This document shows, one piece after another, positions 11,074 to 27,544 of a stretch of DNA of 64,000 nt. This DNA comes from Sulfitobacter sp. (GTDB taxonomy: Bacteria; Pseudomonadota; Alphaproteobacteria; Rhodobacterales; Rhodobacteraceae). The DNA lies in contig NZ_JBALWB010000006.1 of NCBI RefSeq assembly GCF_036960155.1, positions 17,472 through 81,471 of the forward strand, written 5' to 3'. Under the pieces are notes generated by a model. The model saw nothing but the letters and a program-made list of their open reading frames with translations, ran no database searches and was not told the DNA's origin. Within the stretch, counting starts at the first letter, position 1; each line of letters opens with the position of its first letter. Made by a program: the position numbers and the translations under genes.

Positions 11074-12072
11074 CTAGCGTAAAGCATTCAGGCGGCCAAG
11101 AACATCCAGTCCCTGACCCTTCAGCCAGTGAAGTAAGTCGATAAATACCCAATTTTCTGAGAGTTTGTCACCACCACGGCGATAGATGTCGACCACACGG
11201 AATTCACCGGCTTTGCCGGTTGCAGGCAAACCCATAAAGCCGCCTGTTGCCGTGGCTGTGAAATTGGGCCACCCAAAGAAACCACCGAATTCACCTTCGG
11301 CGAGGCGGCACAAATGCCCTGTGCCTGTGCGATTTGTGAAACTGGCGCGGAAGGGGCCTGCGTGTTGTTCGGCGTAGCGCTCGATTGTATAGGTGGCGCC
11401 GACACCAGCGGGACCCCACCAGATCATATCATCGTTCCAAGTGCGGGCCAGTTCCTCCACCAGCGGCAGGCCCGATTGCCAAGTGCCTAGATCGTTGATC
11501 ATCGCATTGATCACAGCGAGGGTTTTCTCGCCCTCTGCCGCGTCTTGTGCAACGTCCATGCGGCCTGTGTGGGTTACAGGGCCAGGTTGGATCAAATGTG
11601 CGGCTGTCTGAGGCGGGAAGGGGTTTACGCCTGCTTGGACCATGAGGTGTGGGATGTCGCAAAACAGGGCCGTCTCGATAATCTTGCCGTTATCGACCTT
11701 TGAAAATTCGGCGTAACGTAGGAAAGTCATTTTGCGTGTCGCTGGGATGCCAAGCCAAGGCGCATCATGCAGTCCCATAAGATGGCCCATTGAAACGACC
11801 CAAATGGATTGGAAGTCATCCATCTGGTTGCGCCCAGCCATAAAGATATCCTCGCGCCGCGTGAGGGACGTAAGCGCGGTTTTAAGCGGAGACCAGAAGG
11901 CGTCGGCCACCTCTTGCGCGCCATTGCGAATGTCGAATGGATGCATGCCTCGCCAGAGGTAGTCGGCGGCCGAATGAACCGCCAACACGGCTGCCACAGC
12001 ATTGGGGGAAGCGGCGTCCACGGCTGCTTGATAAGCGCGGACAACGGCTTTTGCGTCTTGGAACTCTGACAT
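11074..12072 (-). CDS. Tandem SnoaL/NTF2-fold (ester-cyclase-like) protein 1
   Basis: Two repeats of the fold; WWGPAGVG and DIYRR..KLSENWVFIDLL motifs shared with 17943..18968. Confidence 0.85.
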   Translation of the reverse strand: MSEFQDAKAVVRAYQAAVDAASPNAVAAVLAVHSAADYLWRGMHPFDIRNGAQEVADAFWSPLKTALTSLTRREDIFMAGRNQMDDFQSIWVVSMGHLMGLHDAPWLGIPATRKMTFLRYAEFSKVDNGKIIETALFCDIPHLMVQAGVNPFPPQTAAHLIQPGPVTHTGRMDVAQDAAEGEKTLAVINAMINDLGTWQSGLPLVEELARTWNDDMIWWGPAGVGATYTIERYAEQHAGPFRASFTNRTGTGHLCRLAEGEFGGFFGWPNFTATATGGFMGLPATGKAGEFRVVDIYRRGGDKLSENWVFIDLLHWLKGQGLDVLGRLNALR

Positions 12073-12075
12073 GAA

Positions 12076-12957
12076 TTACCCTTTTACAGCGCCTGCGGTG
12101 AGGCCACTGACGATTTGGCGTTGGAAAAACAGGATGAGGACAAAGAGCGGTGCGGTGGCCGAGACAACTGCTGCGACAGCGAACATCACGTTCCCTTCAA
12201 CTTGGGTAGAGCCGAGGAAGCTGGCGATTTTTGGTATCATCGTCTGGTTCTCTTGATTGAGCAACAGGGCCGTCACGGTGAAGTCATTGTATGCCAGCAG
12301 GAAGGAGAACAACCCTGTGGTGATCACACCGGGCCACATGACGGGTACGATGACATGGCGGAACGCTTGGAACCGCGTGCAGCCATCAACCATTGCGCTT
12401 TCGTCCAGATCCTTTGGGATGTTGAGAAAGAAGGAATGCAGCATCCAGAGTGTGAAGGGCTGGTTGATCGCAACAAGGACCACGATGGTGGTGGGGATAT
12501 GCCCCCAAAGGTTCCACTCGAAGAAAGGTAAGAGGTAGCCGGAGACCAGAGTAATATGTGGCATTGCGCGGAACACCAGTGCCAGCATCAGCAGCCAGAA
12601 GGCATAGCGGTAGCCAGAGCGTGCAAGGGCATAGCCACCAAGCGTCCCGAGTGTCAGCGAGATGATAACAGTGAAGAAGACGATGATGCCCGTGTTGAGG
12701 GCCGCGCGCCAGAATTCCTTTTCGATCCATGCACCTTCATAGCCTGCGCCTGTGAAGGGACCGCCTGTTTCTATCACCGTGCGGGTGCCCCACAGCGCAT
12801 TCATCCAATCCGCTTTGGAAAAGAAATCGCCTTGAACTTTGAATGAGCCCCAAAGGGTCCAGAGAAATGGGAAGGCCGCGATCACGATCCATGCCAACAC
12901 AAGGACGGAGGAGATGAGGGCCAGTGGGGTCGAGCGGCGTTTGGATGCGATTGCCAT
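12076..12957 (-). CDS. Carbohydrate (CUT1) ABC permease
   Basis: EAA loop IPKDLDESAMVDGCTRFQAF; multiple TM helices. Confidence 0.95.
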   Translation of the reverse strand: MAIASKRRSTPLALISSVLVLAWIVIAAFPFLWTLWGSFKVQGDFFSKADWMNALWGTRTVIETGGPFTGAGYEGAWIEKEFWRAALNTGIIVFFTVIISLTLGTLGGYALARSGYRYAFWLLMLALVFRAMPHITLVSGYLLPFFEWNLWGHIPTTIVVLVAINQPFTLWMLHSFFLNIPKDLDESAMVDGCTRFQAFRHVIVPVMWPGVITTGLFSFLLAYNDFTVTALLLNQENQTMIPKIASFLGSTQVEGNVMFAVAAVVSATAPLFVLILFFQRQIVSGLTAGAVKG

Positions 12958-12960
12958 AGG

Positions 12961-13989
12961 TTACACCGCCTTGCGGTTAAAGTCGCGCCATGTGCGGATC
13001 AGCACGGGCGTCAGGAGGATCGCTACACCGAACACGGTGAGCATGGAGGTCGCGGCGGCGGAGGCATATTGCGCGTTATCGCCTAATAGATCGCCATAAA
13101 TTTCGGTGGAAAGGGACGAGGCATTGGCCTGTGCGGAGAAGCCGATGATCGGCTCGAACACACGAAAATTATCCATCAGCTGGATCAGCGCGACAAAAAC
13201 AAATAGCGGACCCATGTAGGGGATCACAACATAGCGAATACGCTCCCATCGGCTGGCCCCGTCGATCATGGCCGCCTCAAGCGTCTCTTCGGGCACAGTT
13301 TGAAGGCCTGCGTAGAAGACAACAAAGGCGAAGGGGATGCCGTGCCAGACACCATAGGTGAATAGGGTGAGCCAAGTAAGTAACGGCGATGCTTTAAGCG
13401 ACAGGGCAGGGTCGTTGAATATATATTGCAGAGCTTTGCCAAGAATGCCGTCCGCGTCGATCATCCAGTAAAGGATCAGCGAACCGATCAACGGTGTCAC
13501 GATCATCGGCAGGAGCGAGATAAAGATCGTAGGCCCTTTGAGCAATTTAGGCAGACCGTTCACACCCAGGGCAACAGCCAGCCCGAAGAGGATAACAAGC
13601 GGCGTGACGACTGCGGTATAGGCAAGGGTAAAGGCGAGCGCTTTGTAGAAAGGCAGGTTCATGACACGGGAAAAGAACGCCCCCCAGCTGTCGGCACCTG
13701 ACCATGCAGCAGATATCTCGGCGGTGGCGAGGTGGCCGCGGTCCACATAGGTGCCAAAGCCGTTGAACCTACCCAAAGGAGCGGCCTCTTTGAGCTTGGC
13801 GGAAGCCTCGACATCTACGGAGGTGCTCTGCTTGCAGCCGAAGGGGCCGCAGTTCTCGGACGTGACGAGGATTTGTTCATGTTCGACGTGAAGGGACTGC
13901 ACAATCACGGAGACAAGCGGGAAGGCGATGAACAGGAGCATCGCAAGGGCGGAAGGCAGGATGAACCAGAAAAAGGTGCGATGGGGCAT
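12961..13989 (-). CDS. Carbohydrate (CUT1) ABC permease
   Basis: EAA loop LQTVPEETLEAAMIDGASRWERIRYV. Confidence 0.95.
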   Translation of the reverse strand: MPHRTFFWFILPSALAMLLFIAFPLVSVIVQSLHVEHEQILVTSENCGPFGCKQSTSVDVEASAKLKEAAPLGRFNGFGTYVDRGHLATAEISAAWSGADSWGAFFSRVMNLPFYKALAFTLAYTAVVTPLVILFGLAVALGVNGLPKLLKGPTIFISLLPMIVTPLIGSLILYWMIDADGILGKALQYIFNDPALSLKASPLLTWLTLFTYGVWHGIPFAFVVFYAGLQTVPEETLEAAMIDGASRWERIRYVVIPYMGPLFVFVALIQLMDNFRVFEPIIGFSAQANASSLSTEIYGDLLGDNAQYASAAATSMLTVFGVAILLTPVLIRTWRDFNRKAV

Positions 13990-14041
13990 CAGCTTCGACC
14001 TAACAATTTATGAAAACGGCAATTTGTGAGAACGCTTAGTT

Positions 14042-14073
14042 GTTCGGGGGTGACTTGAGGCTCACCCCCGAAC
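14042..14073. terminator. Perfect 12-bp hairpin after the solute-binding-protein gene (terminator or mRNA stabiliser)
   Basis: gttcgggggtga-N8-tcacccccgaac. Confidence 0.7.
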
Positions 14074-14081
14074 TATTTGAT

Positions 14082-15320
14082 TTACTGCAAGAAGCCTTGC
14101 TCTTTTGCGGAGGTTGTATAGGCGGCAACCACATCAGCCAACGCCTGTTCTGCACTCTCGGAGCCTTGCAAGAACTCGGCGAGGTTGTCACCCAATGCGG
14201 AGTGCATCAGGCCAACGTAGGGCAGCATCGGGTAAGGGTTTGCACCGCCTTCGGCCGACGCGATCACACCGGCCGATGCAGGCGTGGCTACATATGCGGG
14301 GTTGAGCCATACAGCTGCGTCTTGGTTTGCTTTGACTACATCCTCGCCCAGGCCAATCATCATCGCCTGAAAGCTTGCGGCTGCATCTTCATCAGATACG
14401 TTGGACGCAATGGTGAAGCCATCCCACCAAAGAGTTGTCGCTGGTGTCGCACCGCCGCCAAGTGTGGGGGCTGCTGCCAGAACGGTTGTGCTTACAACGT
14501 CCTCCGAGGAACCTTCATTGTCCAGAACTGCTGCGCCGCGAGAGCCCCACATGACGGAAAGGGCAGTATCGCCCGCTTCCCAAAGTGCTTGTGTCGCGTT
14601 GGAATCGAACGTGAGGTAGTCTGGATTAGAATATTCTGTTAGGCTTTTGAGCATGTTAAGCGCTGCAACGCCGCTTTCGTTCTCGATTGCCGGCACGGCA
14701 CTGCCTGCCTCAAACAACTCACCGCCAGTACCCATGTACATGTTGATGAATTCCTCTGCGAGGTTCCAGCCTGCACCAGTATTCAGAGCAACAGGATGCT
14801 CCATGATGCCTGCTGCGCGAATTGCCTCGGCTGCGGCGACAACTTCTTCATAGGAAGTGGGCACTGCAACACCGGCTTTTTCCAGTACATCGGAGCGGTA
14901 GAAGAGGTGCTGTGCGTTGGCCATAAAGGCAACAGCCATGACTTTGCCGTCAACAGTCACTTTGTTCACGCTGGGCAGATCAGGCGCGTATTGGGCGATC
15001 AGGTCATCAAGCGGGCGCACAAGCCCGTCATTGAGAAGGGCCACGATGGAAGAGTTCGCAACCACTGCGACGCTATATTCCGCTGGTGTGCCGCTCATGC
15101 CGGGTGCGTTAAGGGTTTGGTGCTCTTTTGTCATGTTTGCAGTGACGGTGAGGCCGTCGCCTGCGCATGCTTTTGCGACATCCGTGATGGCGTGGATTGC
15201 AGGGAAATCATTGGCGATGATCGATACGTTGCCTGCGCCGATACCGCAGCCTGCTATTGCTGTGGTGCCTGAAAGAACGGCGAATACCGTACCCAGAGCT
15301 GCTGTTTTAAACATGTTCAT
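14082..15320 (-). CDS. ABC extracellular solute-binding protein (family 1)
   Basis: Signal peptide MNMFKTAALGTVFAVLSGTTAIA; LFYRSDVLEKAGVAVPTSYEE motif. Confidence 0.95.
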   Translation of the reverse strand: MNMFKTAALGTVFAVLSGTTAIAGCGIGAGNVSIIANDFPAIHAITDVAKACAGDGLTVTANMTKEHQTLNAPGMSGTPAEYSVAVVANSSIVALLNDGLVRPLDDLIAQYAPDLPSVNKVTVDGKVMAVAFMANAQHLFYRSDVLEKAGVAVPTSYEEVVAAAEAIRAAGIMEHPVALNTGAGWNLAEEFINMYMGTGGELFEAGSAVPAIENESGVAALNMLKSLTEYSNPDYLTFDSNATQALWEAGDTALSVMWGSRGAAVLDNEGSSEDVVSTTVLAAAPTLGGGATPATTLWWDGFTIASNVSDEDAAASFQAMMIGLGEDVVKANQDAAVWLNPAYVATPASAGVIASAEGGANPYPMLPYVGLMHSALGDNLAEFLQGSESAEQALADVVAAYTTSAKEQGFLQ

Positions 15321-15426
15321 GAAGTTCTATCCCTATCGTATCGGCGCTCAATCCTCGAAAGGCGGGGCCGTTGATTATAGTTGCCGACAATCGTTGGCGT
15401 TGTGGTCTGACGAATCGAGTGCCGTC

Positions 15427-15564
15427 TGCATACGTGTGCAATTTAATCCGCAAACGGGATCGTTAAGCAAGTCTTTTCTCACCAATTCGAATATATGCAA
15501 TAGCTTATAAAAAAGAGTTGCATCGTAAAAGGAATGCTGCATTTATTGAATGCAAACGTATGCA
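15427..15564. promoter_or_regulatory. Two LacI-type operators TGCA-n-ACGT-n-TGCA
   Basis: tgcatacgtgtgca at 15427-15440 and tgcaaacgtatgca at 15551-15564, between divergent operons. Confidence 0.7.
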
Positions 15565-15576
15565 AGGAGATGTGCA

Positions 15577-16617
15577 ATGGCGGAAGTCCAACTCCGTAAT
15601 ATTTCGAAAAAGTGGGGTGATTTTGTCGGCGTTGCTGACTTTGACCTGACCATTGCAGACCGTGAATTTCTGGTTTTGCTTGGGCCGTCTGGCTGCGGCA
15701 AGACGACGACCATGCGCATGATTGCAGGGCTTGAAGAGGCCTCAGGTGGGGACATTCTGATTGATGGCAAGCGCGTCAATGATCTTGATCCCAAAGACCG
15801 CGATGTTGCGATGGTTTTTCAGAGCTATGCGCTCTATCCGAACATGGATGTGTACGAAAATATCCGCTTCCCACTCAAGGTGCGTGGCATTCCGAAAGAA
15901 GAGCATGACGACCGTGTGCGCCGCGCCAGTGCGATGGTAGAGCTTGATGAATTCCTGCACCGTCGCCCTGCCGAGTTGTCGGGTGGCCAGCGCCAGCGCG
16001 TGGCCTTAGCCCGTGCAATTGTGCGTGAGCCGAACGTGTTTTTGATGGATGAGCCGCTGTCTAATTTGGATGCAAAGCTGCGCGTGTCCACCCGTGCCCA
16101 GATCAAAAACCTGAGCCATGAACTCAAGGTCACTACTATCTATGTGACCCATGACCAAATTGAGGCGATGACCCTTGCTGACCGCGTGGTGGTTATGAAC
16201 AAAGGTGTTGTGCAGCAGGTCGGCTCACCTACGGAAATCTATGATCGTCCGGCAAATGCATTCGTGGCCAGTTTTATCGGTAGCCCTGCGATGAACCTCG
16301 TCGAGGGGGCTTTGAAAAGCGGTACATTCACCGCGCCGAATGTAGAGATTAAAGGGCTGACGGGGCCTGATGGTCCCGCAACGCTAGGTTTTCGGGCGGA
16401 GGATGCCACGGCGTCAGAGGCGGGGCAGATCACTGCGCCGATCTATGCGCTTGAGCTGTTGGGTGATGCCACGATGATCACGGTGAAATCGGGCGGTGCG
16501 TTGGTGTCGGTAAAGGCGCATAAAGATTTTCGAGCCAAGATTGGTGCCACTTTTGTTGCCACTGTTCCCGCCGATATGTGCCACTTGTTTCACAGCGAAA
16601 CTGGCGAACGTCTTTAA
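15577..16617 (+). CDS. ABC ATP-binding protein (UgpC/MalK-like)
   Basis: GPSGCGKTT, LSGGQRQR, FLMDEPLSNLD; start MAEVQ at 15577. Confidence 0.97.
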   Translation: MAEVQLRNISKKWGDFVGVADFDLTIADREFLVLLGPSGCGKTTTMRMIAGLEEASGGDILIDGKRVNDLDPKDRDVAMVFQSYALYPNMDVYENIRFPLKVRGIPKEEHDDRVRRASAMVELDEFLHRRPAELSGGQRQRVALARAIVREPNVFLMDEPLSNLDAKLRVSTRAQIKNLSHELKVTTIYVTHDQIEAMTLADRVVVMNKGVVQQVGSPTEIYDRPANAFVASFIGSPAMNLVEGALKSGTFTAPNVEIKGLTGPDGPATLGFRAEDATASEAGQITAPIYALELLGDATMITVKSGGALVSVKAHKDFRAKIGATFVATVPADMCHLFHSETGERL

Positions 16618-16635
16618 TTTCCAAGGTAGACTGAA

Positions 16636-17946
16636 ATGACAATTACCCATCTGAAATCTGGCAAGCCTGAATCCGAGCGTGCCGAAGATGATGCAGCCGT
16701 ACGTAAAACGGTTGAAAGCACCCTGAGCGATATCGAAACACGCGGTGATGCTGCAATCCGTGAGCTGTCGGCCAAGTTTGACAAATACGAGCCTGCAAAC
16801 TTTCGCCTGACACCCTCTGAAATTGAGGCGGCAATGCAAAAGGTGAGCGCGCGGGACATGGAGGACATCAAGTTCGCCCAAACCCAAATCCGCACCTTCG
16901 CCGAAGCGCAACGTGCCAGCATGACTGACATCGAAATTGAAACCATGCCTGGTGTGATCTTGGGGCATAAGAATATACCTGTGCAATCTGTTGGTTGTTA
17001 CGTGCCGGGGGGTAAGTTTCCCATGGTGGCCTCTGCCCATATGTCGGTGCTGACGGCGACAGTTGCTGGCGTGCCGCGGATTGTGGCCTCTGCGCCGCCG
17101 ATGAATGGTGCGCCGCATCCTGCAATTGTCGCTGCAATGCAGTTGGGCGGCGCGCATGAAATTTACGTGCTGGGTGGGATGCAAGCGGTTGGTGCGATGG
17201 CAATTGGGACCGAGACGATTGAGCCGGTTCATATGCTTGTTGGTCCCGGCAACGCCTTTGTCGCTGAGGCAAAGCGCCAGCTGTTTGGCCGTGTGGGGAT
17301 CGACCTGTTTGCAGGCCCAACCGAGACGATGGTGATTGCGGACGATACTGTTGATGCAGAGCTGTGTGCGACGGATCTTTTGGGGCAGGCGGAGCATGGC
17401 TATAACTCACCTGCGTGTCTGATCACCACCAGCCGCAAGTTGGCCGAAGATACACTGGCCGAGATTGATCGTTTGTTGGAGATTTTGCCGACGCGGGAGA
17501 CGGCATCGGTGAGTTGGCGTGACTATGGCGATGTCATCGTGTGCGACACACACGCCGAAATGTTGCAGGTCGCCAATGATATGGCCTACGAGCACGTGCA
17601 GGTGATGACGGACCGTGATGACTGGTTCTTGGAAAATATGCACAGCTATGGTGCGCTGTTCTTGGGGCCACGTACCAATGTGGCAAATGGGGATAAGGTG
17701 ATTGGCACAAATCACACCCTGCCTACGAAGAAGGCGGGGCGCTATACAGGTGGTCTTTGGGTCGGAAAATTCCTGAAGACACACAGCTATCAGCGTATCA
17801 CCAGTGACGAGGCCGCAACCACCATCGGTGAATATGGCTCACGCCTGTGTATGCTCGAAGGGTTTGTCGGTCACGCCGAGCAATGTAATGTGCGCGTGCG
17901 CCGTTATGGCGGTAAGAATGTAGCTTACGGGGCAGCAGCAAAATGA
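16636..17946 (+). CDS. Histidinol-dehydrogenase paralog (HpsN-like clade), substrate unknown
   Basis: [51 protein letters not shown] (HisD has GDY); not in a his operon. Confidence 0.9.
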
Positions 17947-18968
17947 CACTCCATACGGCATTGGTGCCGCTTCAAAAGGCGCTGGCGACCGCGACGGCTG
18001 ATGGTGTGCGCGACGCACTCAAGGTGATGACGCCTGATGCGGTGATCCACATGTGTCACCCGATTGGTGATGTTCTGGGTGCTGATGCCTATGAGCGGAT
18101 GTATGCACCGCTCCTCAATGCTATGCCCGACCTAGAGCGCCGGGATATGATCACGTTGACCAACACGACGCCCGAGGGTGAAGTGTGGGTTGGTTGTATG
18201 GGTAACTATATGGGCACGATGTTGCGCCCGTGGCTAGGCATTCCGCCGACGGGCCATCTGGTGCATATGCGCTATCACGAGTTTTTCCGCATCGAGGATA
18301 ACCACGTGACCCAAGCGCAGATTATCTGGGACATTCCCGAAGTGATGATGCAGGCAAACGCATGGCCGCTTGCCCCGCAGTTGGGTAAATACTTGGCGAC
18401 ACCTGCGCCCATGACGCAGGATGGTCTGACGGCTGATGGGGACGGCAGTGCCACTATGGCACATGTCATTGCGATGCTGACGGACCTGTGCAAATACCCT
18501 GCCGATCCTGACCCTGCTGTGATGAATTTGGACAAATACTGGCACCCGCGCAACAACTGGTACGGGCCTGCGGGCATCGGTACAGGGCGCGGGATCGCAG
18601 GATTTCGCAACTGGCACCAAATCCCGTTCCTAAAAGCCATGCCCGATCGCAAGCTTGATGCGATGGGGGACCTGATGTCGCAATGGTTTGCCCAAGGGGA
18701 TTACGTCTGTGAGACAGGTTGGCCCAACATGCGCCTAACCGTCAGTGAGGGTGAATGGATGGGATTGGCACCAGCGGGGCGCGAAATTCTGATGCGTTCA
18801 CTTGATTTCTGGCGCATGGAAGGTGATTTGATCCGCGAAAACTGGGTGCTGATTGACCTGCTGGATATCTACCGCCAGTTAGGGGTGGATGTGCTTGCCC
18901 GCATGGGCGAGTTTAACAAGGCCCGTAATCTGGGACCGATCACTCTTCCCGAAGGACAGTTTCAATGA
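17943..18968 (+). CDS. Tandem SnoaL/NTF2-fold protein 2
   Basis: WYGPAGIG; [20 protein letters not shown]; paralog of 11074..12072. Confidence 0.85.
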
Positions 18969-19729
18969 CACTGCCACAAACACCCACGTTTCGCCTTGAG
19001 GGTAAGCGCGCGATGGTCACGGGGGCAAGTTCCGGCATTGGGCTGGCGGCTGCTGTGGCATTGGGGCAGGCGGGGGCGCATGTTGTTCTGGTCGCGCGCG
19101 GCGTTGAGGCGTTGGAGGCTGTGACCAAGCAGATGACAGCGGCGGGATATTCCGCACAAAGCTTGCCGCTGGATATAACTGACATTGCAGCAACGGAGGC
19201 GGCGGTAGCAGCGCATGGGCCGTTTGATGTGCTGGTGAACTCTGCCGGATTGGCGCGTCATTCACCCGCGCTTGAGACCACGCTTGAAGTCTATGACGCT
19301 GTTATGGAGGTGAATGTGCGTGCCGCATATTTCCTCACGCGCAATGTGGCTAAGGGGCTGATCGCTGCGGGCAAGGGCGGCAGCCTGATCAATCTGTCGT
19401 CCCAAATGGGACATGTGGGTGGCGTGGATCGCTCTGTCTATTGCGCGACGAAACATGCGCTGGAAGGCATGACCAAGGCAATGGCGATTGAGTGGGGGCC
19501 AAACGGCATCCGCGTGAATACGTTATGCCCGACATTCATTCGCACCCCGTTGGCCGAGCAGACCCTCGCCATCCCAGAGCGGCGCGCGTGGATTGAAAGC
19601 ATGATCAAACTAGGCCGCGTGGGCGAGATCGAAGATTTAATGGGACCGGTGGTATTTCTGGCCTCTGATGCATCGGCGCTGATGACAGGCACCAGCCTAT
19701 TGATTGATGGAGGTTGGACAGCTGATTGA
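18965..19729 (+). CDS. Short-chain dehydrogenase/reductase
   Basis: TGASSGIG, VNSAG, YCATK. Confidence 0.97.
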   Translation: MTLPQTPTFRLEGKRAMVTGASSGIGLAAAVALGQAGAHVVLVARGVEALEAVTKQMTAAGYSAQSLPLDITDIAATEAAVAAHGPFDVLVNSAGLARHSPALETTLEVYDAVMEVNVRAAYFLTRNVAKGLIAAGKGGSLINLSSQMGHVGGVDRSVYCATKHALEGMTKAMAIEWGPNGIRVNTLCPTFIRTPLAEQTLAIPERRAWIESMIKLGRVGEIEDLMGPVVFLASDASALMTGTSLLIDGGWTAD

Positions 19730-20748
19730 TGCCAGAAGGTAAAGTCACATCATTACATGTTGCACGCCGCGCTGGCGTGAGCCAATCGGCGGTGAGCCGT
19801 GTGTTTTCTGGCGCGTCAGCATCTCCTCAGACGGTGATCAAAGTGCGCAAAGCAGCAGAGTATCTGGGCTACCGCCCCAATCCGCTGGCCCGCGCGATGA
19901 TCACCGGAAAAAGCAAGATCATTGGTCTGGTGGTCGCCTATCTCGACAACCAGTTTTACCCGCTGGCATTGGAGCGTTTGTCTAATGCGCTTCAGGATCA
20001 AGGGTATCATGTGCTGGTATTTATGGCACCAAATGACGAGAACGCGGTTGAGAAGGTTGTGCATGATCTGATGGATTATCAGGTTGCGGGGATCATCACG
20101 GCCAGCGTTGGCATGACCAACGATCTGACGCGGCGCTGTGCGGATGCGGGTATTCCTGTGGTGATGTTTAACCGTGGGCAGGATGGTGGTGGAATTTCCT
20201 CTGTCACTTCGGCCAATGTTGCAGGGGGCGCGCAGATTGCGGATTTCTTGGCGGCGGGAGGGCACAAACGCATTGCGCATATCGCGGGTTGGGAAGGGTC
20301 CTCGACGGGACGTGACCGTGCGCGCGGATTCATCCAAGGTCTTGATCTGCATGGACTGGCCCCTGTGGCTGTGATTGATGGGCATTATGACCGCGAGATC
20401 GCCGCACAAGCGACACGTGACATTATGTCCGGGCCGCAACCCGCTGATGCAATATTTGTGGGGAATGACCATATGGCATTTGCCGTGATGGACACCTTGC
20501 GGGGTGAGTTGGGTCTGTCGGTGCCTGATGATGTGTCGGTTGTGGGATATGACGACGTGCCTTTGGCGGCTTGGGCGGCTTACGATCTTACCACGCTGCG
20601 TCAGCCGCTGAACCGGATGGTTGAGGCAACAGTCGATACGCTGCTGGGGCAGATTGCGGATGCAGAGCGCCCCTCCCAGAAAATTGAAATTGAAGGGCCT
20701 CTGATCCTGCGTAGATCAGCCAGAACACCGGAAGGATGGTCGCTATGA
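19729..20748 (+). CDS. LacI-family regulator
   Basis: VTSLHVARRAGVSQSAVSRVF..YRPNPLARAM; VSVVGYDD. Confidence 0.97.
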   Translation: MPEGKVTSLHVARRAGVSQSAVSRVFSGASASPQTVIKVRKAAEYLGYRPNPLARAMITGKSKIIGLVVAYLDNQFYPLALERLSNALQDQGYHVLVFMAPNDENAVEKVVHDLMDYQVAGIITASVGMTNDLTRRCADAGIPVVMFNRGQDGGGISSVTSANVAGGAQIADFLAAGGHKRIAHIAGWEGSSTGRDRARGFIQGLDLHGLAPVAVIDGHYDREIAAQATRDIMSGPQPADAIFVGNDHMAFAVMDTLRGELGLSVPDDVSVVGYDDVPLAAWAAYDLTTLRQPLNRMVEATVDTLLGQIADAERPSQKIEIEGPLILRRSARTPEGWSL

Positions 20749-21734
20749 AGGGTTTCTCGAACAGGTTTGAGGATTTTCCCGATTATATCTTGGGGATCAC
20801 GAAGGAAATATGGGAGGAGCGCGGGATTGCCACGCTGCACCACTATTATACGCCTGATCTCGTGGTCCGCTCACCTTCATCCGTCGTGATTGGCAACGAG
20901 AATGTCATTGGTGCCACAATGGCAACTTTGGCGGAGTTTCCCGATCGCACCTTGCTGGGAGAAGACGTGATCTGGTCCGGCACACCCGAAGAGGGGATGT
21001 TATCCTCCCACCGCATCTACTCCACCGCAACCCACATGGGGGACGGGGTATACGGTAAGGCCACGGGCAAAAAACTAGGCTACCGCATCATCGCCGATTG
21101 CCATGCGATTAATGACCAGATCAACGACGAGTGGTTGATCCGCGACCAAGGCGCAATTGTGCGTCAGATGGGCTGGGACCCAACCGATTATGCCCGCGAT
21201 CAGATCGCAAGTGAGGGTGGGCCGGAGCATGCGGTTAAACCCTTTACCCCTGCGATTGATGTGGCGGGTCCCTATACTGGACGCGGTAATGAGAATGAGT
21301 GGGGCGCGTGCTATGGCGATCTGCTCACGCGGATCATGGGGGCGGACATGGCCGCAATACCTGAAGGTTATGATCGCGCTTGCCAGCTTGAACTGCCTGG
21401 CGGTGTTACGGGCCATGGCTGGGGTGATGCGGATACGTTCTGGATGGGGCTGCGTGCGGCCTTTCCGGATGCTGAGTTTAAGATCCATCACGTGATTGGT
21501 CGTAATGATCCGACCCTGCCGCCACGTGCGGCTGTCCGGTGGAGCTTGCACGGCAAACATTCAGGCTGGGGTGGTTTTGGCAGACCCTCTGGGGCAGAAG
21601 TGCATGTGATGGGCATTTCCCACGCTGAATTCGGCGCGATTACAGGCACGGAGCCAAAGTTGCGCCGCGAATTTGTAATATTTGACGAAACCGCGATCTG
21701 GAAGCAGATCCTCTTGCACACAGGTGCGCTATGA
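20745..21734 (+). CDS. Tandem SnoaL/NTF2-fold protein 3
   Basis: ITKEIWEERG..YYTPDLVVR, ADCHA..INDEWLIRD, second repeat AVRWSLHGKH; ATGA overlap with lacI. Confidence 0.8.
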   Translation: MKGFSNRFEDFPDYILGITKEIWEERGIATLHHYYTPDLVVRSPSSVVIGNENVIGATMATLAEFPDRTLLGEDVIWSGTPEEGMLSSHRIYSTATHMGDGVYGKATGKKLGYRIIADCHAINDQINDEWLIRDQGAIVRQMGWDPTDYARDQIASEGGPEHAVKPFTPAIDVAGPYTGRGNENEWGACYGDLLTRIMGADMAAIPEGYDRACQLELPGGVTGHGWGDADTFWMGLRAAFPDAEFKIHHVIGRNDPTLPPRAAVRWSLHGKHSGWGGFGRPSGAEVHVMGISHAEFGAITGTEPKLRREFVIFDETAIWKQILLHTGAL

Positions 21735-22708
21735 CCCCCGATGAGATGAACGCCCGTATTGTCCGTTATGGCGAGTTGATGCCGTGTAAGACAGCATTTA
21801 TTGACGCGCACACACCTGGTTCGAACCAGAAAGAGAACTTTACCATCATTGGGGGCGGCGTCTCAGAGAGCCCTGACCAGCATGTACATATCGGTATACC
21901 GCACGGGTTCAATATTGGCGCAGCAGGCCAGCCGCCTAAATGCCGCAACTCGTTGCATAGCCACCGCACGGCAGAGGTGTTTTTTGTACTGTCAGGGCGC
22001 TGGCGGTTTTTCTGGGGCCGTTATGGCGACGCGGGCGAAGTGGTACTGGAAGAAGGTGATGTCATCAACATCCCCACAGGTATCTTTCGCGGGTTCGAGA
22101 ACATCGGCACGGATTATGGAATGATCATGGCCGTCCTCGGCGGTGATGATGCGGGTGGTGGTGTGATCTGGGCACCCCAAGTGATTGAAGATGCTGCGGA
22201 TCATGGGCTCGTGCTGGGCGATAATGGCAAGCTCTATGATACCAAAAAAGGGGAAGCTTTGCCGGGTGGCGTTGCCCCCTTGCCGGTGCTGACGGAAGCG
22301 GAAATGAAAGCCTATCCCGAACCCACCACTGCTGATGTCGTGCCACGTCATGTGGCGCGGTATTGGGATATGGTGGCGCTCGGCGACCGCAAACCTGCCC
22401 TGGTGATAGGCGAGAACGGCACGTTGCCCGACAAGCCCGGATTTGAAGTACATCTTGTCACGCGCGGCTCGGCAACCGCCGAGATGCACAAGCATGATCT
22501 TCCCAGCGTGCTGATGCCCATGCGCGGTCACTGGACTGTCAAATGGGACGCCTCGGGGGAGACACATAGTGTCGTCCTTAACCCCGGTGACACGATGTCA
22601 CTGCCCGAGGGCGTGATGCACAGCGCGCAGCCCTCGATGACAGGAGAGGCGTCAATGTTCCATGTTGTCGCCACTGTTGAGGGCGCTGGCCCTACCTGGA
22701 AAGGATAA
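21731..22708 (+). CDS. Bicupin protein
   Basis: SLHSHRTAEVFFVLSGRW cupin motif 1 and a second C-terminal cupin (MHKHDLPSVL..GVMHSA). Confidence 0.85.
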   Translation: MTPDEMNARIVRYGELMPCKTAFIDAHTPGSNQKENFTIIGGGVSESPDQHVHIGIPHGFNIGAAGQPPKCRNSLHSHRTAEVFFVLSGRWRFFWGRYGDAGEVVLEEGDVINIPTGIFRGFENIGTDYGMIMAVLGGDDAGGGVIWAPQVIEDAADHGLVLGDNGKLYDTKKGEALPGGVAPLPVLTEAEMKAYPEPTTADVVPRHVARYWDMVALGDRKPALVIGENGTLPDKPGFEVHLVTRGSATAEMHKHDLPSVLMPMRGHWTVKWDASGETHSVVLNPGDTMSLPEGVMHSAQPSMTGEASMFHVVATVEGAGPTWKG

Positions 22709-22711
22709 GCC

Positions 22712-23833
22712 ATGACCGTTTTGACAACTCACGTTGGATCGCTGCCGCGCAGCCAAGACGTAGTGGATTTCATTTTTGCCCGCGAAAATGAAACGCCCTA
22801 TGATCAGGACGCATTTGATGCGGCGATGGCCAAGGCGGTGTCTGAGACCGTGGCCAAGCAGGTCGCTGCAGGTGTGGGTATTGTATCGGACGGGGAGACG
22901 TCCAAGATTAGTTATGCCACCTACGTCAAAGATCGCTACACCGGATTTGGCGGTGACAGTCCACGCAACGCCCCGGCGGATCTCAAGCAGTTTCCGGGAT
23001 ACCTCAAGCGGCTTGCTGAGGAGGGTGGCACCCCGAAATACGCCCGCCCCATGTGTGTGGGCGCAGTGACGTCCAAGGGGCAGGGTGAGTTAGAAAAAGA
23101 CATCGCCAATCTAAAAGCGGGGATGGCCGAGCATGGAGCTCAGCGCGGCTTTATGAACGCGGCGTCTCCCGGTGTGATCAGTTTGTTTTTACAAAACGAC
23201 TTCTACAAAAACCGCGAGGCTTATCTGGCCGCGTTAGCGGATGCGATGAAGGCGGAGTACGAGACAATTGTGGCTTCCGGTCTGGACCTGCAGCTGGATT
23301 GCCCTGATCTGGCTCTGTCGCGGCACATGTTGTTCAATGATCTGAGTGATGCGGAATTTGTGAAAATCGCCAATATGCATGTTGATGCGCTTAATCACGC
23401 GCTCAGCGATATTCCGCAGGAGAAGGTGCGCATCCATATTTGTTGGGGCAACTATGAGGGGCCGCATGTTTGTGATGTGCCCATGGCCACGATGTTCGAT
23501 ACGCTGATGTCAGCCAAGGCGCGCTATGTCCTATTCGAGACATCGAACCCGCGCCACGGCCATGAGTGGACCGTTTTTCGCGATCGCAAAGGCGATATTC
23601 CTGATGACAAGGTACTGGTGCCGGGGGTGGTTGATACCACTACTAACTTTGTCGAGCATCCCGAACTTGTCGCCCAGCGTATCGACCGCTTTACCCCGTT
23701 GGTGGGGCATGACCGTGTGATCGCAGGTAGCGATTGTGGGTTTGGTACGTTCGCAGGCTTTGGCGCTGTTGATCCTGACATCGCCTTCGCAAAGCTCAAG
23801 GCTCTCTCGGACGGGGCCGCCCTCGCGTCATGA
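22712..23833 (+). CDS. Cobalamin-independent methionine synthase II-family (MetE catalytic-domain-only) Zn enzyme
   Basis: TTHVGSLPR, VSDGE, HICWGN, FE, GSDCGFG Zn ligands. Confidence 0.9.
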   Translation: MTVLTTHVGSLPRSQDVVDFIFARENETPYDQDAFDAAMAKAVSETVAKQVAAGVGIVSDGETSKISYATYVKDRYTGFGGDSPRNAPADLKQFPGYLKRLAEEGGTPKYARPMCVGAVTSKGQGELEKDIANLKAGMAEHGAQRGFMNAASPGVISLFLQNDFYKNREAYLAALADAMKAEYETIVASGLDLQLDCPDLALSRHMLFNDLSDAEFVKIANMHVDALNHALSDIPQEKVRIHICWGNYEGPHVCDVPMATMFDTLMSAKARYVLFETSNPRHGHEWTVFRDRKGDIPDDKVLVPGVVDTTTNFVEHPELVAQRIDRFTPLVGHDRVIAGSDCGFGTFAGFGAVDPDIAFAKLKALSDGAALAS

Positions 23834-24528
23834 CGCTTCCGCTGATTTTGCTGCCCGGCATGATGTGTGATGCAAGGCTGTTTGCGCCGCAGGTTGAGGT
23901 GCTGTCAAAGCGCGGTCCGGTGACGGTAGCTGATGTAAGCGGGCATGACAGCATGACTGCACTGGCGGCTGCAGTGTTGGCGGATGCGCCGCCTGTGTTT
24001 GCCCTTGGTGGGCTGTCCATGGGCGGCATCGTCGCAATGGAGATGGTCAGGCAGGCCCCTCAACGCATTGCCAAATTGTGTTTGATGGACACCAATCCGA
24101 TGGCTGAAACAGATGCTGTCAAATCCCGCCGCGGACCGCAGATTGACAAGGCACAGGCAGGGCAGTTGGACCATGTCATGCGCAATGAGATGAAGCCGAA
24201 TTACCTGACGGAGGGGCCGCGGCGCGCCACGATCCTAGACTTGTGCATGGAGATGGCGCTGGAGCTTGGGTCGGATGCGTTTGTGCGCCAATCCGTTGCT
24301 TTGCTGGATCGCCCCGATCAGTGCGACACCCTGCGCGGCGTGACGGTGCCTACGCTGGTGCTGTGCGGACGTGAAGATAGCCTTTGCCCTGTTGCGCGCC
24401 ATACACTGATGCATGAGCTGGTGGGCGGCTCCGTGCTGGAGATCATCGCGGGGGCTGGGCATCTACCGACCTTAGAGCAGCCACAACATACCACAGCGGC
24501 GCTGATCCGCTGGATGGAGGACGAATGA
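23830..24528 (+). CDS. Alpha/beta hydrolase
   Basis: GLSMGG, GREDSLCP, AGHLPTLE. Confidence 0.95.
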   Translation: MTLPLILLPGMMCDARLFAPQVEVLSKRGPVTVADVSGHDSMTALAAAVLADAPPVFALGGLSMGGIVAMEMVRQAPQRIAKLCLMDTNPMAETDAVKSRRGPQIDKAQAGQLDHVMRNEMKPNYLTEGPRRATILDLCMEMALELGSDAFVRQSVALLDRPDQCDTLRGVTVPTLVLCGREDSLCPVARHTLMHELVGGSVLEIIAGAGHLPTLEQPQHTTAALIRWMEDE

Positions 24529-25235
24529 CGGATACGGCTTTGGACGACACACTCCTGACGCTACTGCGGTCAGTGGATACCCCAACAGTTTGCAATGCAA
24601 TCGAGGTGGCTCAGGGCAAACGCGGGTTTGATGCTTTTACCCGTGGCACAATGCTGTGTTCTGACCCTGATGGTGGTGCGATTGTCGGCTATGCCGTGAC
24701 TGCCAAGATAGCCGCCGTCGAGCCGCCCACCGAAGCGCCAGACGTGATCCGCGCGCGACGTATGACCTATTACAAAGCGATGTCGGAGGGGCCAAACCCG
24801 TCAGTCGCGGTTGTAGAGGACCTCGATTACCCCCACGCCATTGGAGCCTATTGGGGCGAGGTCAATACCACTATCCACAAAGGGTTCGGTATGTCCGGGG
24901 CGCTGACCAACGGTGTTATGCGCGATCTGGGCGATATGGCGTCAGGCTTTCCGGTCCTTGCAGGGTCGGTCGGCCCCAGTCATGGCTTTGTCCATGTCAA
25001 AGAAATTGGAACACTAGTCAGTATTTTTGGCCTGAATGTGGCCCAAGGCGATCTGATCCACGCCGACCGCCACGGCGCCGTTGTGATCCCTATGGATGTG
25101 TTGGGTGGGTTGGCGGATGCGATTCAGAAGATGCAAGAAACTGAGACACTGGTTCTCGGTCCCGCGCGTGCGCCAGGGTTTGACTTTGAGACGTTTGAGC
25201 GTGCATGGATTGCATTTGAAAAATCACGAACCTGA
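24525..25235 (+). CDS. RraA/HMG-aldolase-family protein
   Basis: DTPTVCNA, AYWGEVN, ALTNGVMRD, GDLIHADRHG. Confidence 0.9.
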   Translation: MTDTALDDTLLTLLRSVDTPTVCNAIEVAQGKRGFDAFTRGTMLCSDPDGGAIVGYAVTAKIAAVEPPTEAPDVIRARRMTYYKAMSEGPNPSVAVVEDLDYPHAIGAYWGEVNTTIHKGFGMSGALTNGVMRDLGDMASGFPVLAGSVGPSHGFVHVKEIGTLVSIFGLNVAQGDLIHADRHGAVVIPMDVLGGLADAIQKMQETETLVLGPARAPGFDFETFERAWIAFEKSRT

Positions 25236-25310: not shown

Positions 25311-26214
25311 TGCTCTGTCGCAAACTTTTCAATCTATTGACGAACGGTCTTCTGCGGACGCAATTATGCTTCGAGCGCGGCAAACTACCTGAACGCTGGG
25401 ATACCTGTATTGGCTAATTGACCCTTGCGGTTCTTATGCGCGGCTTTGATCCCAGCCAATGTTGCAGCCGTAAAATGGAAAGCTTTGAAGCCGAGCATTG
25501 GCCGTGTAATCCGTTTGATAAACCTGTGATCCTGTTCGACGATGTTCATTCTCCGGCAAACAAGTTTACCCTGCCATGCAGTTGTTGAGATATTTGGATT
25601 GAACGATTTCGATGATCCGCCCTCCTCCCGTGAATTTGAGGATGACATTTAAGTTTTGCAGGCCAGCCAAATTGGCTCGACTTTTGTCGATGGCAATACG
25701 ATCTGGGATACCGTTTGTGCCAACTGCCCGTTTGAAAATCGCCGCGCAGCAGCGGTATCGCGGCGCTCTGACATCATGAAATCAAGGGTTTGTCCGCCGC
25801 GATCGACTGCGCGATACAGGTAGACCTATTTTCCGCGAACTTTGACATAGGTTTCATCTGTCACCTGACAGGGTATTGCGCAGTAATATCCCGAGAGGGC
25901 TTTCGCCATGAAGAGGCGGTTTGCTTCTTTCTTGCCTTGGCATTTTCAGCGATCAGCGGTGAGAACTTCACCACCCAACGGTTCAGCGTGACATGATCGA
26001 TTTCAACACCACGTTCAGCCATAATTTCTTCCAAGTCTCTATACGAGACGCCGTAACGCACGTAGAAAAATATGGCAAAAAGGATCACGCTTTTGGGGAA
26101 GTGATCCCCTTGGAAATCAATCATCACGGTTGGGCGCTCACCTTCAAGAACAAAGCTCCGCATCTAACATGGTCTAGCCGTCTTACCCAATCGACACAGT
26201 TTTGCGACAGAGCC
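25311..26214 (-). mobile_element. IS6-family element, defective (copy 1, 904 bp)
   Basis: Ends tgctctgtcgcaaact / agttttgcgacagagcc; transposase remnant at about 25364-26124 with a stop, a frameshift and two insertions. Confidence 0.92.
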
Positions 26215-26369
26215 TTGATGCGCGATGTACAGATGACGGCTACTTGAACAATGCAGCCCTTAAGTGTTGCGCCCAGTCCTTCAAAATCATTTTCAAATGT
26301 CTACACAAGACAATGGCAGCGTTTCCTTAGGTGAAGGACGTTCTGTCAATTCATCGCTTGAACGGAAGT

Positions 26370-27544
26370 TTAGGATGCGACCTTGGCCGCGGCCAATCCG
26401 ATCTCAAACTCGGACTTTATCAAATCAAAACTTTCAATGCCTACAGAAACCCGGATCAGGTTGTCCTCAATACCAAGCGCGTAACGTTCGTCTTTCGTCA
26501 ATTTTCGATGGGACGTCACGGCAGTCATAATAACGAGCGTCGCGACGTCACCAAGAGCAGGCCCTTTCACATCCGCGCAAGAAGGCATTCGCATTGGCGC
26601 GATTGCCTTTCAGGACAAAGCTGACCATCGCTCCATGCCCGCCTGAGATCATTGACGTCGCCAGTTCATGATCGGGATGTGAAGTAAGGCCGGGGAAGTG
26701 GGTCTTTTCAACCATGCTGTGCCCGTTAAGAAACGTGGCTAATTCTTGGGCGTTCTCTTGCGCCTGCTTGAACCGTAGGTCAAATGTATTTAGCCCGCGC
26801 TCTGCCATCCAGCAGTTATAGGGGCTGGCGTTCAAACCCATTGTTGCGATGACATCGCTGATCTTGTCTAGCAGATCAACATCAATGCCACCAAGGTAGC
26901 CAAGGTTCAGATCACTGTGTCCTGACAGCATTTTGGTGACCGAATGCATGGCCAAATCGGCTCCTTGTTCGAGCGGGCGAAACCCCGTCGGGGTTGTGAA
27001 GGCATTGTCGATCAACAGCAAAGCTCCGACAGCTTTGCAGGCTTTCACCAACGCCTCAAAATGGGTCACGCGAAGCATTGGGTTCGAAACGATTTCAGCC
27101 AGCACAATTTGGGTTCCAGGGGTGATCGCATGGGCAAATGTACTTGGATCAGAGGAGTCAAATGTGCGGCAGGGAAAACCCATACGCGGCAGTTCATCCG
27201 TCACCATTTTCAAAGACCGACCGTACAGCTGCGACGCGGCTGCGATTGAATCGCCAGCCCTCAACACTGCATGAACGTCGCCGAAATTGCCGACATGCCA
27301 GAGGCTGTCATGACACCTGCATTGGCGCTTTCCATCCACGACAGCTTGTCAGACAGACTTTCCGCATTCGGGTGGCCTTCGCGCGCATAGGCGAAACCCT
27401 TTTCTTGCCCATCATAAACCGACTGAAGTTGATCCGCATCTTCGTAGTGATAAACCACGGATGGTGACAAAGCAGGGACAAGCGGCTTGCCAAGGCTTTG
27501 AGGAAAGTGCCGCGACGCACGACTGAGCTATGTGGTTTTTTCAT
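26370..27544 (-). pseudogene. Cys/Met metabolism PLP enzyme (cystathionine gamma-synthase/lyase family), frameshifted
   Basis: YAREGHPNA, ASGMSAIS, IDNAFTTP, HSVTKMLSGHSD, SHR..LIRVSVGIE split over four ORFs. Confidence 0.88.

Follow-up and report, generated by a model that had tools for sequence, protein, structure and literature searches.

Which compound is imported and degraded by the products of 14 genes that combine a carbohydrate uptake transporter 1 (CUT1)-type ATP-binding cassette (ABC) importer and a LacI-family repressor with a HisD-family dehydrogenase, three SnoaL proteins and a MetE-like enzyme? The question is raised by a gene cluster at positions 11074-25235 of a 64,000-nucleotide stretch of DNA from Sulfitobacter sp. 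(contig NZ_JBALWB010000006.1; this whole stretch is referred to as the window). Based on the analyses reported here, we suggest that the region is very probably a LacI-repressed divergon for the import and degradation of one small polar metabolite, that this metabolite is not 2,3-dihydroxypropane-1-sulfonate (DHPS), and that it matches the substrate of no described pathway that we could find. An inducible repressor, a high-affinity importer that is exchanged between lineages, and a run of oxidoreductases, hydrolases and lyases together make up the architecture of a catabolic regulon. Thus, the gene content supports a preliminary description of this DNA, in which the locus was taken for a LacI-regulated, CUT1-fed catabolic gene set. 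That description also held that no characterised pathway has this gene set and, in agreement with this, we found no published pathway or paper with it in the literature searched, which largely excludes subscription journals. The hom operon for homarine was considered and rejected; it has a different gene set, and the paper on it mentions no SnoaL, HisD or cupin protein.

Could the cluster be a second pathway for DHPS, cysteinolate or another C3-sulfonate, with the HisD paralog as a divergent HpsN? The best matches of this protein in the Protein Data Bank (PDB) are indeed the HpsN enzymes of Cupriavidus pinatubonensis (8v35) and Ruegeria pomeroyi (8wwe; E 2e-112), with which it shares 45-47% identity, while histidinol dehydrogenases rank behind (E 7e-76). 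Also, the second gene after that for the HisD paralog encodes a short-chain dehydrogenase/reductase (SDR), which recalls the succession of hpsN and hpsO. The substrate-binding loop, however, speaks against a sulfonate. In the C. pinatubonensis enzyme, the last residue of the loop G-R-Y-A/S-H (His126) is a zinc ligand when the enzyme is free and forms a hydrogen bond to the sulfonate when this is bound, while HisD has G-S-A-P-L at this place (PMC11382572). Aligned to 8v35 and 8wwe, the loop of the window protein reads G-K-F-P-M, i.e. the sulfonate-binding His is replaced by Met.

To place these features in a wider context, we compared related loci, i.e. the best 80 of 582 stretches encoding a SnoB relative (SnoB being the second of the three SnoaL proteins) among GTDB contigs with one genome per species. 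G-K-F-P-M is present in 55 of the 71 HisD-family open reading frames (ORFs) retrieved from these loci, and it is kept across orders; the Erythrobacter, Hellea and Halomonas types have GKYPL or GGYPM instead, and the HpsN loop His is found in none of the cluster-linked copies among the 71. In a maximum likelihood tree, the cluster-linked HisD proteins group together (support 87/94), as sister to the HpsN clade comprising 8v35, 8wwe and two paralogs from the same genome as the window (support 100/99). In other words, the outcome that the preliminary description named as fatal to its reading, namely that the paralog clusters with bona fide HpsN, is not what we observe: the protein lies in a sister clade and lacks the signature His. 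By contrast, the residues of the zinc site (Gln/His/Asp/His') as well as the catalytic Glu-His and Asp-Lys pairs are kept, with Q251, H254, E319, H320, D353, K354 and H413 invariant in 59 orthologs. Because all zinc and catalytic residues are invariant, the HisD paralog should be active.

Five HisD-family genes are present in the host genome. The true HisD is encoded on contig C29 (552 bits) and is only 36% identical to the window copy, and a copy of 294 aa on contig C1 is about 32% identical to the window protein. Two further paralogs have the loop GRYSH and are 82% identical to R. pomeroyi HpsN; they lie on contigs C25 (~226.7-233 kb, L086) and C18 (~258-265 kb, L087). At both places the GRYSH gene is followed by an SDR gene and then a zinc alcohol dehydrogenase gene, with tripartite ATP-independent periplasmic (TRAP) transporter genes nearby, which is the canonical hpsNOP/hpsKLM arrangement. 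Judging from these genes, the capacity for DHPS oxidation is already duplicated in the host genome. The two modules are near-identical, and one of them adjoins a D-amino-acid-dehydrogenase-like gene.

Pfam scans of the 14 genes revealed no hpsO/hpsP partners, no TRAP uptake system and no desulfonation genes in the cluster; specifically, a sulfo-lyase, Xsc, CuyA and a sulfite exporter are all lacking from it. Taken together, the GKFPM loop, the sister position of the clade and the two hps modules elsewhere make DHPS an unlikely substrate. We therefore rejected DHPS and other sulfonates as substrate on the basis of loop motif, phylogeny, missing desulfonation genes and the two canonical hps modules, and consider a second C3-sulfonate pathway highly improbable. 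The identity of the paralog as a histidinol dehydrogenase was rejected as well; the protein is without the G-S-A-P-L loop, and the genome encodes a separate true HisD. Separately, a HisD-family paralog of Octadecabacter sp. R77987 (L038, ~19974-20941) has the loop G-R-Y-P-L and sits on a long branch outside both the HpsN and the cluster clades; it may represent yet another specificity in the HisD family.

The closeness of the two clades has a consequence for environmental surveys. A Tara Oceans survey states a cut-off of 167 bits for hpsN (PMC11131964). Against R. pomeroyi HpsN, the cluster-type HisD paralogs reach 332-365 bits and even the true HisD of the host genome reaches 238 bits. Since all these scores exceed the cut-off, such surveys may count the cluster-type paralog, and even true HisD, as hpsN, and published hpsN abundances may be inflated. 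The loop motif, GRY[AS]H versus GKFPM, offers a simple separator of hpsN from the cluster-type paralog.

If not a sulfonate, what enters the cell through the importer, and how would the genes be controlled? The transporter has the full complement of a CUT1 system, i.e. an SBP_bac_1 binding protein, two BPD_transp_1 permeases and a MalK/UgpC ATPase with a C-terminal OB domain, and the ATPase scores 445.8 bits against the NCBIfam UgpC subfamily (cut-off 432). Going by family membership, the lipoprotein binding protein, the two permeases and the ATPase would assemble into one CUT1 importer. CUT1 importers normally carry sugars, polyols or glyceryl compounds. The PDB relatives of the binding protein are distant (E 2e-10 or weaker) and include sugar-, sorbitol- and chitin-oligosaccharide-binding proteins and the SmoF proteins that bind sulfoquinovosyl glycerol.

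The putative regulator has an N-terminal LacI helix-turn-helix domain and a periplasmic-binding-protein-like effector domain, and CG-centred palindromes lie near the promoters, as in the LacI/GalR family; its nearest NCBIfam model is RbsR, at a score below cut-off. The palindrome, TGCANACGTNTGCA, is 14 bp long and has only two matches in the 64 kb, with one mismatch allowed (Table 1), both of them inside the shared divergent intergenic region. The expectation from shuffled sequence is 0.27 matches, and two matches occurred in 2 of 100 shuffles; a search of the window with three mismatches added nothing credible. Among 46 related loci, 30 have one or more such sites in the 300 bp before the ATPase start, at distances of 12-15 and about 137-172 nt in the Sulfitobacter/Octadecabacter types and of 24-41 and 78-101 nt in the Ruegeria/Shimia types. 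Thus, the twin operators proposed in the preliminary description are real, being unique in the window and conserved in position, and they make a good phylogenetic footprint for what would be the operator of the cluster-encoded LacI protein. A promoter scan of the window gave a site count not above that of shuffles.

The start of the ATPase gene is most likely the ATG at 15577 (MAEVQL...) and not the ATG at 15550 chosen by the ORF finder, which overlaps operator 2; an AAGGAG ribosome-binding site (RBS) at 15564-15569 precedes the former. With the start at 15577, operator 2 lies directly upstream of the RBS and outside the gene. The ORF opening at 15550 would lengthen the ATPase by 9 residues in automatic annotation. 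We suggest that the LacI protein binds both palindromes between the operons, with operator 2 abutting the RBS of the ATPase gene, and that the substrate or an early intermediate acts as inducer and would free LacI from the operators.

How far is this arrangement shared? The gene set is nearly wholly syntenic in about 70 of the 80 loci, which span several orders and two classes and come from Sulfitobacter, Octadecabacter, Yoonia, Ruegeria, Shimia, Leisingera, Halomonas, Erythrobacter/Porphyrobacter, Luminiphilus, Hellea/Algimonas and Pseudahrensia as well as from single-cell ocean genomes of uncultured alphaproteobacteria with 31-34% GC. Of 301 genomes sampled from the host family, 110 have the cluster, corresponding to 109 of 300 genera. 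More than 5,400 SnoB relatives at E <= 1e-20 are present in the protein database, under no other names than "ester cyclase" or "polyketide cyclase". One gammaproteobacterial copy is placed among those of Roseobacters in the HisD tree; this and the position of the window cluster, between transposase fragments and a truncated gene for an enzyme of Cys/Met metabolism, fit lateral spread.

The constant core of these loci consists of the HisD paralog, two or three proteins of the SnoA/B type together with SnoC, the bicupin, the SDR and LacI, and most loci add a hydrolase and a MetE-like gene. Around this core, genes are exchanged. In the Erythrobacter/Porphyrobacter loci, a TonB-dependent receptor replaces the ABC importer and an HpcH/HpaI aldolase replaces the RraA-like gene (4 loci); these loci are without the alpha/beta hydrolase and the MetE-like gene and have an Amidohydro_2 gene of the LigI/lactonase family. 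The Hellea/Algimonas loci have an SSF symporter and an Amidohydro_2 protein, and five Ruegeria-type loci encode both hydrolases. These non-orthologous replacements of aldolase, hydrolase and importer point to the types of step in the pathway. Accessory genes comprise those for a HAD hydrolase (13 loci), a single-domain SnoaL protein (16), a class III aminotransferase (10) and an S-adenosylmethionine (SAM) methyltransferase (8), and a sulfatase gene lies near seven loci. In one low-GC single-cell locus (L057, 12526-19465), the cluster is followed by genes for an EamA exporter, a PTA_PTB protein, a class III aminotransferase and an alanine dehydrogenase, and by a second, better-scoring Meth_synt_2 protein (134 bits) and a sulfatase.

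The preliminary description had the pathway ending in aldol cleavage. The swap between the RraA-like and HpcH/HpaI proteins, two unrelated aldolase families, supports such a step, but not as a universal one: the RraA-like gene is present in 34 of the 80 loci (L019, for instance, carries it within the cluster), and the window protein is not a LigK equivalog. When seven genomes with an RraA-less cluster were checked, two encoded an RraA-like protein elsewhere and five had none, including two Octadecabacter genomes of 3.3-3.8 Mb.

What can be said about the individual enzymes? Their roles would follow from conserved catalytic residues. The HisD-family enzyme would oxidise a primary alcohol to the carboxylate where the neighbouring carbon bears a hydroxyl or amino group, using Zn2+ and two NAD+, and the SDR would oxidise a secondary alcohol or reduce a ketone. 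The SDR is below every NCBIfam cut-off, and its nearest models are gluconate 5-dehydrogenase, KduD, GolD/DthD and L-rhamnose 1-dehydrogenase. It is 36-38% identical to the HpsO-like SDRs of the host genome; we discarded the idea of a shared origin with these, as such identity is ordinary among SDRs and uninformative.

The three SnoaL proteins score 56-80 bits against Pfam SnoaL (cut-off 28.4). The preliminary description counted three SnoaL proteins; there are three, but each is a tandem of two SnoaL domains, giving six domains in total. SnoA and SnoB are 31% identical, SnoC and SnoB 19%, and homologs assigned to SnoA and SnoC occur in 48 and 65 related loci, respectively. An AlphaFold2 (AF2) model of SnoB (mean confidence, pLDDT, 89) has two alpha+beta barrels and a linker without regular secondary structure at about residues 138-168, and a Foldseek search returned the tandem NTF2 enzyme Lsd19 at the top, followed by IdmH, AclR, SnoaL2 and ChaU. 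SnoaL relatives of known function are mostly polyketide tailoring enzymes and eight loci have a SAM methyltransferase gene, as might be expected if the cluster were a biosynthetic or salvage system in which SnoaL-type cyclases make a secondary metabolite. Yet the cluster encodes no polyketide synthase (PKS), nonribosomal peptide synthetase or scaffold-forming enzyme; the SnoaL genes sit in an importer-linked operon, and in other lineages a TonB receptor or SSF symporter takes the place of the high-affinity importer; the LacI-type arrangement is that of a substrate-inducible system; an aldolase gene stands at the operon end; and the cluster is present in genome-streamlined oligotrophs. A biosynthetic function is, thus, extremely improbable. 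In a catabolic pathway, the tandem SnoaL proteins could carry out cofactor-free steps on enolisable carbonyls, i.e. hydration or dehydration, isomerisation, C-N or C-O elimination, or retro-aldol cleavage.

In the MetE-like protein, the zinc ligands H242, C244, E276 and C342 are invariant in 53 orthologs. Its best score against a methionine synthase model is 80.8 bits (cut-off 406), and it is without the N-terminal folate-binding Meth_synt_1 domain; the His-Cys-Glu-Cys zinc site would move an alkyl group, probably methyl, onto a thiol. The bicupin has H76, H78, E82 and R120 invariant in the N-terminal barrel, while the C-terminal barrel is degenerate, and its single His-His-Glu metal site could serve oxygenolytic cleavage or isomerisation. 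Its AF2 model (pLDDT 90) matched the quercetinase YxaG, MncA and oxalate decarboxylase at structural similarity (TM) scores of ~0.55. The Ser-Asp-His triad of the hydrolase (S63, D183, H211) is invariant and would open an ester or lactone; the protein reaches 86.2 bits against PcaD (TIGR02427; cut-off 255.85) and 63 against BioH (cut-off 207). In the RraA-like protein, R133-D134, E112 and D99/D101 are invariant, and its 24.8 bits against the LigK/PcmE equivalog TIGR02798 (cut-off 304.5) indicate that it is not an equivalog of LigK, the 4-hydroxy-4-methyl-2-oxoglutarate aldolase. Where present, it would convert a 4-hydroxy-2-oxo acid to central metabolites. Sequence searches of the PDB with the bicupin, the MetE-like and RraA-like proteins and SnoB returned nothing informative.

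Several of these enzymes recall the degradation of a methoxylated aromatic or lignin-derived acid by a lower pathway of the gallate/protocatechuate-4,5 type, with O-demethylation, ring cleavage by a cupin dioxygenase, hydrolysis of a lactone or ester, and cleavage by an aldolase acting on 4-carboxy-4-hydroxy-2-oxoadipate (CHA). The RraA-like protein and the Amidohydro_2 protein of some loci belong to the families of LigK and LigI/LigJ, a PcaD-like hydrolase is present, and the modelled bicupin fold appears to resemble ring- or enol-cleaving dioxygenases. Nevertheless, we regard an aromatic substrate as very unlikely: import by a CUT1 system and regulation by LacI would be unusual for aromatic acids, no demethylase of the LigM/DesA or VanAB type and no dioxygenase of the LigAB/GalA type is encoded in the cluster, the LigK score is far below cut-off, and the cluster is found in streamlined open-ocean genomes of low GC content.

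Can a substrate be proposed at all? The preliminary description inferred the uptake and ring opening of a cyclic polar metabolite with a hydroxymethyl group and gave cyclitol-, gadusol- or mycosporine-like algal compounds as examples, which is a guess that makes chemical sense. As a tentative and, on balance, doubtful guess, the cluster might serve the bacterial breakdown of the UV sunscreens of algae, cyanobacteria and animals, i.e. of mycosporine-like amino acids and gadusol, via their 4-deoxygadusol core. Such a route is chemically coherent and the concrete one that we prefer, and we infer it wholly from the chemistry that the enzymes might perform. The SnoaL proteins would hydrolyse the imine- or enamine-linked amino-acid substituents, and the HisD-like enzyme would take C5(OH)-CH2OH to C5(OH)-COOH, which is HisD-type chemistry on a 1,2-diol. 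The enol methyl ether would be lost by MetE-like transfer to homocysteine, giving methionine and a cyclic aci-reductone; alternatively, the hydrolase could remove the methyl group as a methyl ester after ring cleavage. The bicupin, with O2, would cleave the cyclic aci-reductone to CHA, and the RraA-like aldolase would split the latter into pyruvate and oxaloacetate. There is precedent for the last two steps: the iron acireductone dioxygenase, itself a cupin, cleaves an acireductone at the enediol bond, and CHA is the substrate of RraA-fold CHA aldolases, which form pyruvate and oxaloacetate. Pfam scans revealed neither an aldehyde dehydrogenase nor a kinase, a glycosidase or a sugar-acid dehydratase of the classical type in the cluster, and the missing aldehyde dehydrogenase fits an aldolase of which both products are central metabolites. 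Degradation of mycosporines would, thus, explain four otherwise odd enzymes together with the absence of downstream genes.

A number of observations weigh against this proposal. The MetE-like gene is absent from the Erythrobacter- and Halomonas-type loci, and the RraA-like gene from the low-GC single-cell and several Octadecabacter loci. The SDR is given no necessary role, and the route does not account for the accessory genes that encode HAD, sulfatase, SAM methyltransferase and aminotransferase proteins. Also, and irrespective of the substrate, no enzyme of the cluster reaches the cut-off of any curated NCBIfam equivalog and, with scores far below these cut-offs, every role is assigned at the level of the superfamily; similarly, Foldseek matched the bicupin and SnoB models to nothing more specific than the general bicupin and NTF2 folds. 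Apart from these points, the searchable literature yielded no paper on the genes by which bacteria break down mycosporines or gadusol.

Finally, LacI and CUT1 proteins are typical of carbohydrates, and this leads to the alternative that the cluster serves to oxidise a sugar, polyol or glyceryl-X compound by a non-phosphorylative pathway, e.g. a glyceryl glycoside or an algal sugar that is branched or unusual. Such a pathway would run through a dehydrogenase, a lactonase, dehydration or isomerisation, and an aldolase, with the HisD-like enzyme making the acid from a terminal CH2OH. Importer and repressor fit this alternative, as do the sugar-acid dehydrogenase models nearest to the SDR, the sulfatase gene near some loci, and the Amidohydro_2 and HpcH/HpaI proteins of the Erythrobacter type, which belong to the families of the L-rhamnono- and L-fucono-lactonases and of the 2-keto-3-deoxy-L-rhamnonate aldolase. 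However, the cluster lacks dehydratases of the enolase, IlvD or DapA type as well as kinases and glycoside hydrolases, and it has no aldehyde dehydrogenase for the aldehyde half of an aldol cleavage; these absences argue against a sugar route of the ordinary kind. The similarity of the binding protein to sugar binders is remote (E about 1e-10), and SnoaL or MetE-like enzymes have, to our knowledge, not been met with in the breakdown of sugars. We consider a sugar or polyol possible, though less than probable.

The features of the cluster are collected in Table 1. All 14 ORFs and their domains were confirmed by ORF listing and Pfam scans, and they form two divergent, closely packed operons of four minus-strand and 10 plus-strand genes. 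Seven of the nine plus-strand junctions overlap (by 4, 4, 4, 13, 4, 4 and 4 nt) and the remaining gaps are 3 to 18 nt; the minus-strand genes are separated by 3, 3 and 92 nt. These coordinates bear out the preliminary description of two divergent operons with mostly overlapping stops and starts. All the parts that it named are present, but its title omitted the SDR, the bicupin and the alpha/beta hydrolase.

Table 1. Genes and other elements of the divergent cluster (positions in the window).
Feature	Position	Strand	Basis
SnoA, tandem SnoaL/NTF2 protein, 332 aa, last gene of transporter operon	11074..12072	-	Pfam SnoaL (two stretches) and SnoaL_2
ABC permease 2, MalG/UgpE-like	12076..12957	-	Pfam BPD_transp_1; nearest NCBIfam MalG, below cut-off
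ABC permease 1, UgpA-like	12961..13989	-	Pfam BPD_transp_1; nearest NCBIfam UgpA, below cut-off
GC-rich hairpin, 12-bp stem	14042..14073	.	Terminator-like scan: 12 pairs, 8 G-C
Periplasmic substrate-binding protein, CUT1 type, probable lipoprotein signal (..TAIAG|C)	14082..15320	-	Pfam SBP_bac_1
Operator 1 (predicted), TGCATACGTGTGCA	15427..15440	.	One of only two matches in the window
Operator 2 (predicted), TGCAAACGTATGCA, beside RBS of ATPase gene	15551..15564	.	One of only two matches in the window
ABC ATPase, UgpC/MalK type; ORF opens 15550, probable start 15577	15577..16617	+	Pfam ABC_tran and OB_MalK
HisD-family NAD/Zn four-electron alcohol dehydrogenase, HpsN sister subfamily	16636..17946	+	Pfam Histidinol_dh, 448 bits
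SnoB, tandem SnoaL/NTF2 protein, 341 aa	17943..18968	+	Pfam; AF2 model; Foldseek
Classical SDR oxidoreductase	18965..19729	+	Pfam adh_short_C2
LacI-family repressor, TTG start	19726..20748	+	Pfam LacI HTH and Peripla_BP_3/1/4
SnoC, tandem SnoaL/NTF2 protein, 332 aa, divergent paralog	20736..21734	+	Pfam
Bicupin, one conserved metal site in N-terminal barrel	21731..22708	+	Pfam Cupin_2 and Cupin_1
MetE-like (core-MetE-type) zinc enzyme, probable alkyl/methyl transferase	22712..23833	+	Pfam Meth_synt_2 only
Alpha/beta-fold hydrolase, PcaD/BioH-like esterase or lactonase	23830..24528	+	Pfam Abhydrolase_6
RraA-like protein, probable metal-dependent aldolase or decarboxylase	24525..25235	+	Pfam RraA-like

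The hairpin has a perfect stem and lies in the 92 nt that separate the gene for the binding protein from that for the first permease. Intra-operon stem-loops of this kind often raise the level of binding-protein mRNA relative to permease mRNA, and we infer that it is an intra-operon attenuator or mRNA stabiliser. Outside the cluster, fragments of a DDE transposase split over two ORFs (9012-10059) lie on one flank. On the other flank (25385-27339) there are small ORFs and a truncated gene for a pyridoxal phosphate (PLP)-dependent enzyme of Cys/Met metabolism (26548-27339), the 263-aa product of which covers profile positions 84-317 of 381. Transposase fragments and truncated PLP gene suggest an island-like insertion or local decay.

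The cluster is common, occurring in hundreds of mostly marine bacterial species, in about one third of the genera of the host family and also in macroalga-associated Hellea/Algimonas. In view of this wide occurrence, it probably handles a widespread dissolved metabolite, and the marine carbon cycle would gain a further link once this substrate is named. The cluster also offers a physiological context for tandem "ester cyclases", for core-MetE homologs in aerobic marine bacteria and for the RraA-like subfamily found in it. If the cluster does act on sunscreens, it would be a genetic system for consuming mycosporine-like amino acids and gadusol, compounds for which catabolic genes were not found in the searchable literature.

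Parts of the cluster have counterparts in known systems, and each of these parts appears in a different setting here. With the lower pathway of protocatechuate 4,5-cleavage and gallate degradation (LigI/esterase, LigJ, LigK/GalC), the cluster shares an RraA-like gene at the operon end, a hydrolase of the alpha/beta or Amidohydro_2 type and, plausibly, a tertiary 4-hydroxy-4-carboxy-2-oxo acid as last intermediate. By contrast, it has no equivalog match to LigK, LigI or LigJ and no LigAB/GalA-type dioxygenase, and its transporter and regulator are of the sugar type. The bicupin resembles acireductone dioxygenase (ARD) and quercetinase in its His-x-His-x3-Glu metal site, and its fold is nearest to that of the quercetinase YxaG; in one locus (L024) a HAD gene directly follows the bicupin gene, recalling the MtnC-MtnD pair. 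It differs from these cupins in the low similarity (TM ~0.55, 12-16% identity), in the replacement of the fourth metal ligand by an invariant Arg and in the degenerate second barrel.

The HisD paralog is closest to HpsN, the R-DHPS 3-dehydrogenase (EC 1.1.1.308) of the hpsKLM-hpsNOP module, with which it has in common the HisD fold, the zinc and catalytic residues and an SDR gene in the same operon. The cluster around it differs from the hps module by a CUT1 ABC importer instead of a TRAP transporter, by LacI control and by being without desulfonation genes. Like Lsd19, a tandem NTF2 epoxide-opening cyclase, and other SnoaL cyclases, the SnoaL proteins have two fused barrels per chain and an Asp conserved near the end of each barrel; unlike these, they stand in a catabolic and not a polyketide context, occur as three paralogs per cluster and are only 16-20% identical to them. 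Lastly, core-MetE homologs with intact zinc ligands and no known role occur in cosmopolitan marine bacteria, and the copy of Phaeobacter inhibens fails to rescue methionine auxotrophy (PMC12478193). The MetE-like protein shares with core-MetE, the C-terminal domain of MetE and epoxyalkane:coenzyme M transferase the Meth_synt_2 barrel, the His-x-Cys/Glu/Cys zinc ligands and the GS, DGE and LDxP motifs, and it is set apart from these by its place inside a catabolic operon.

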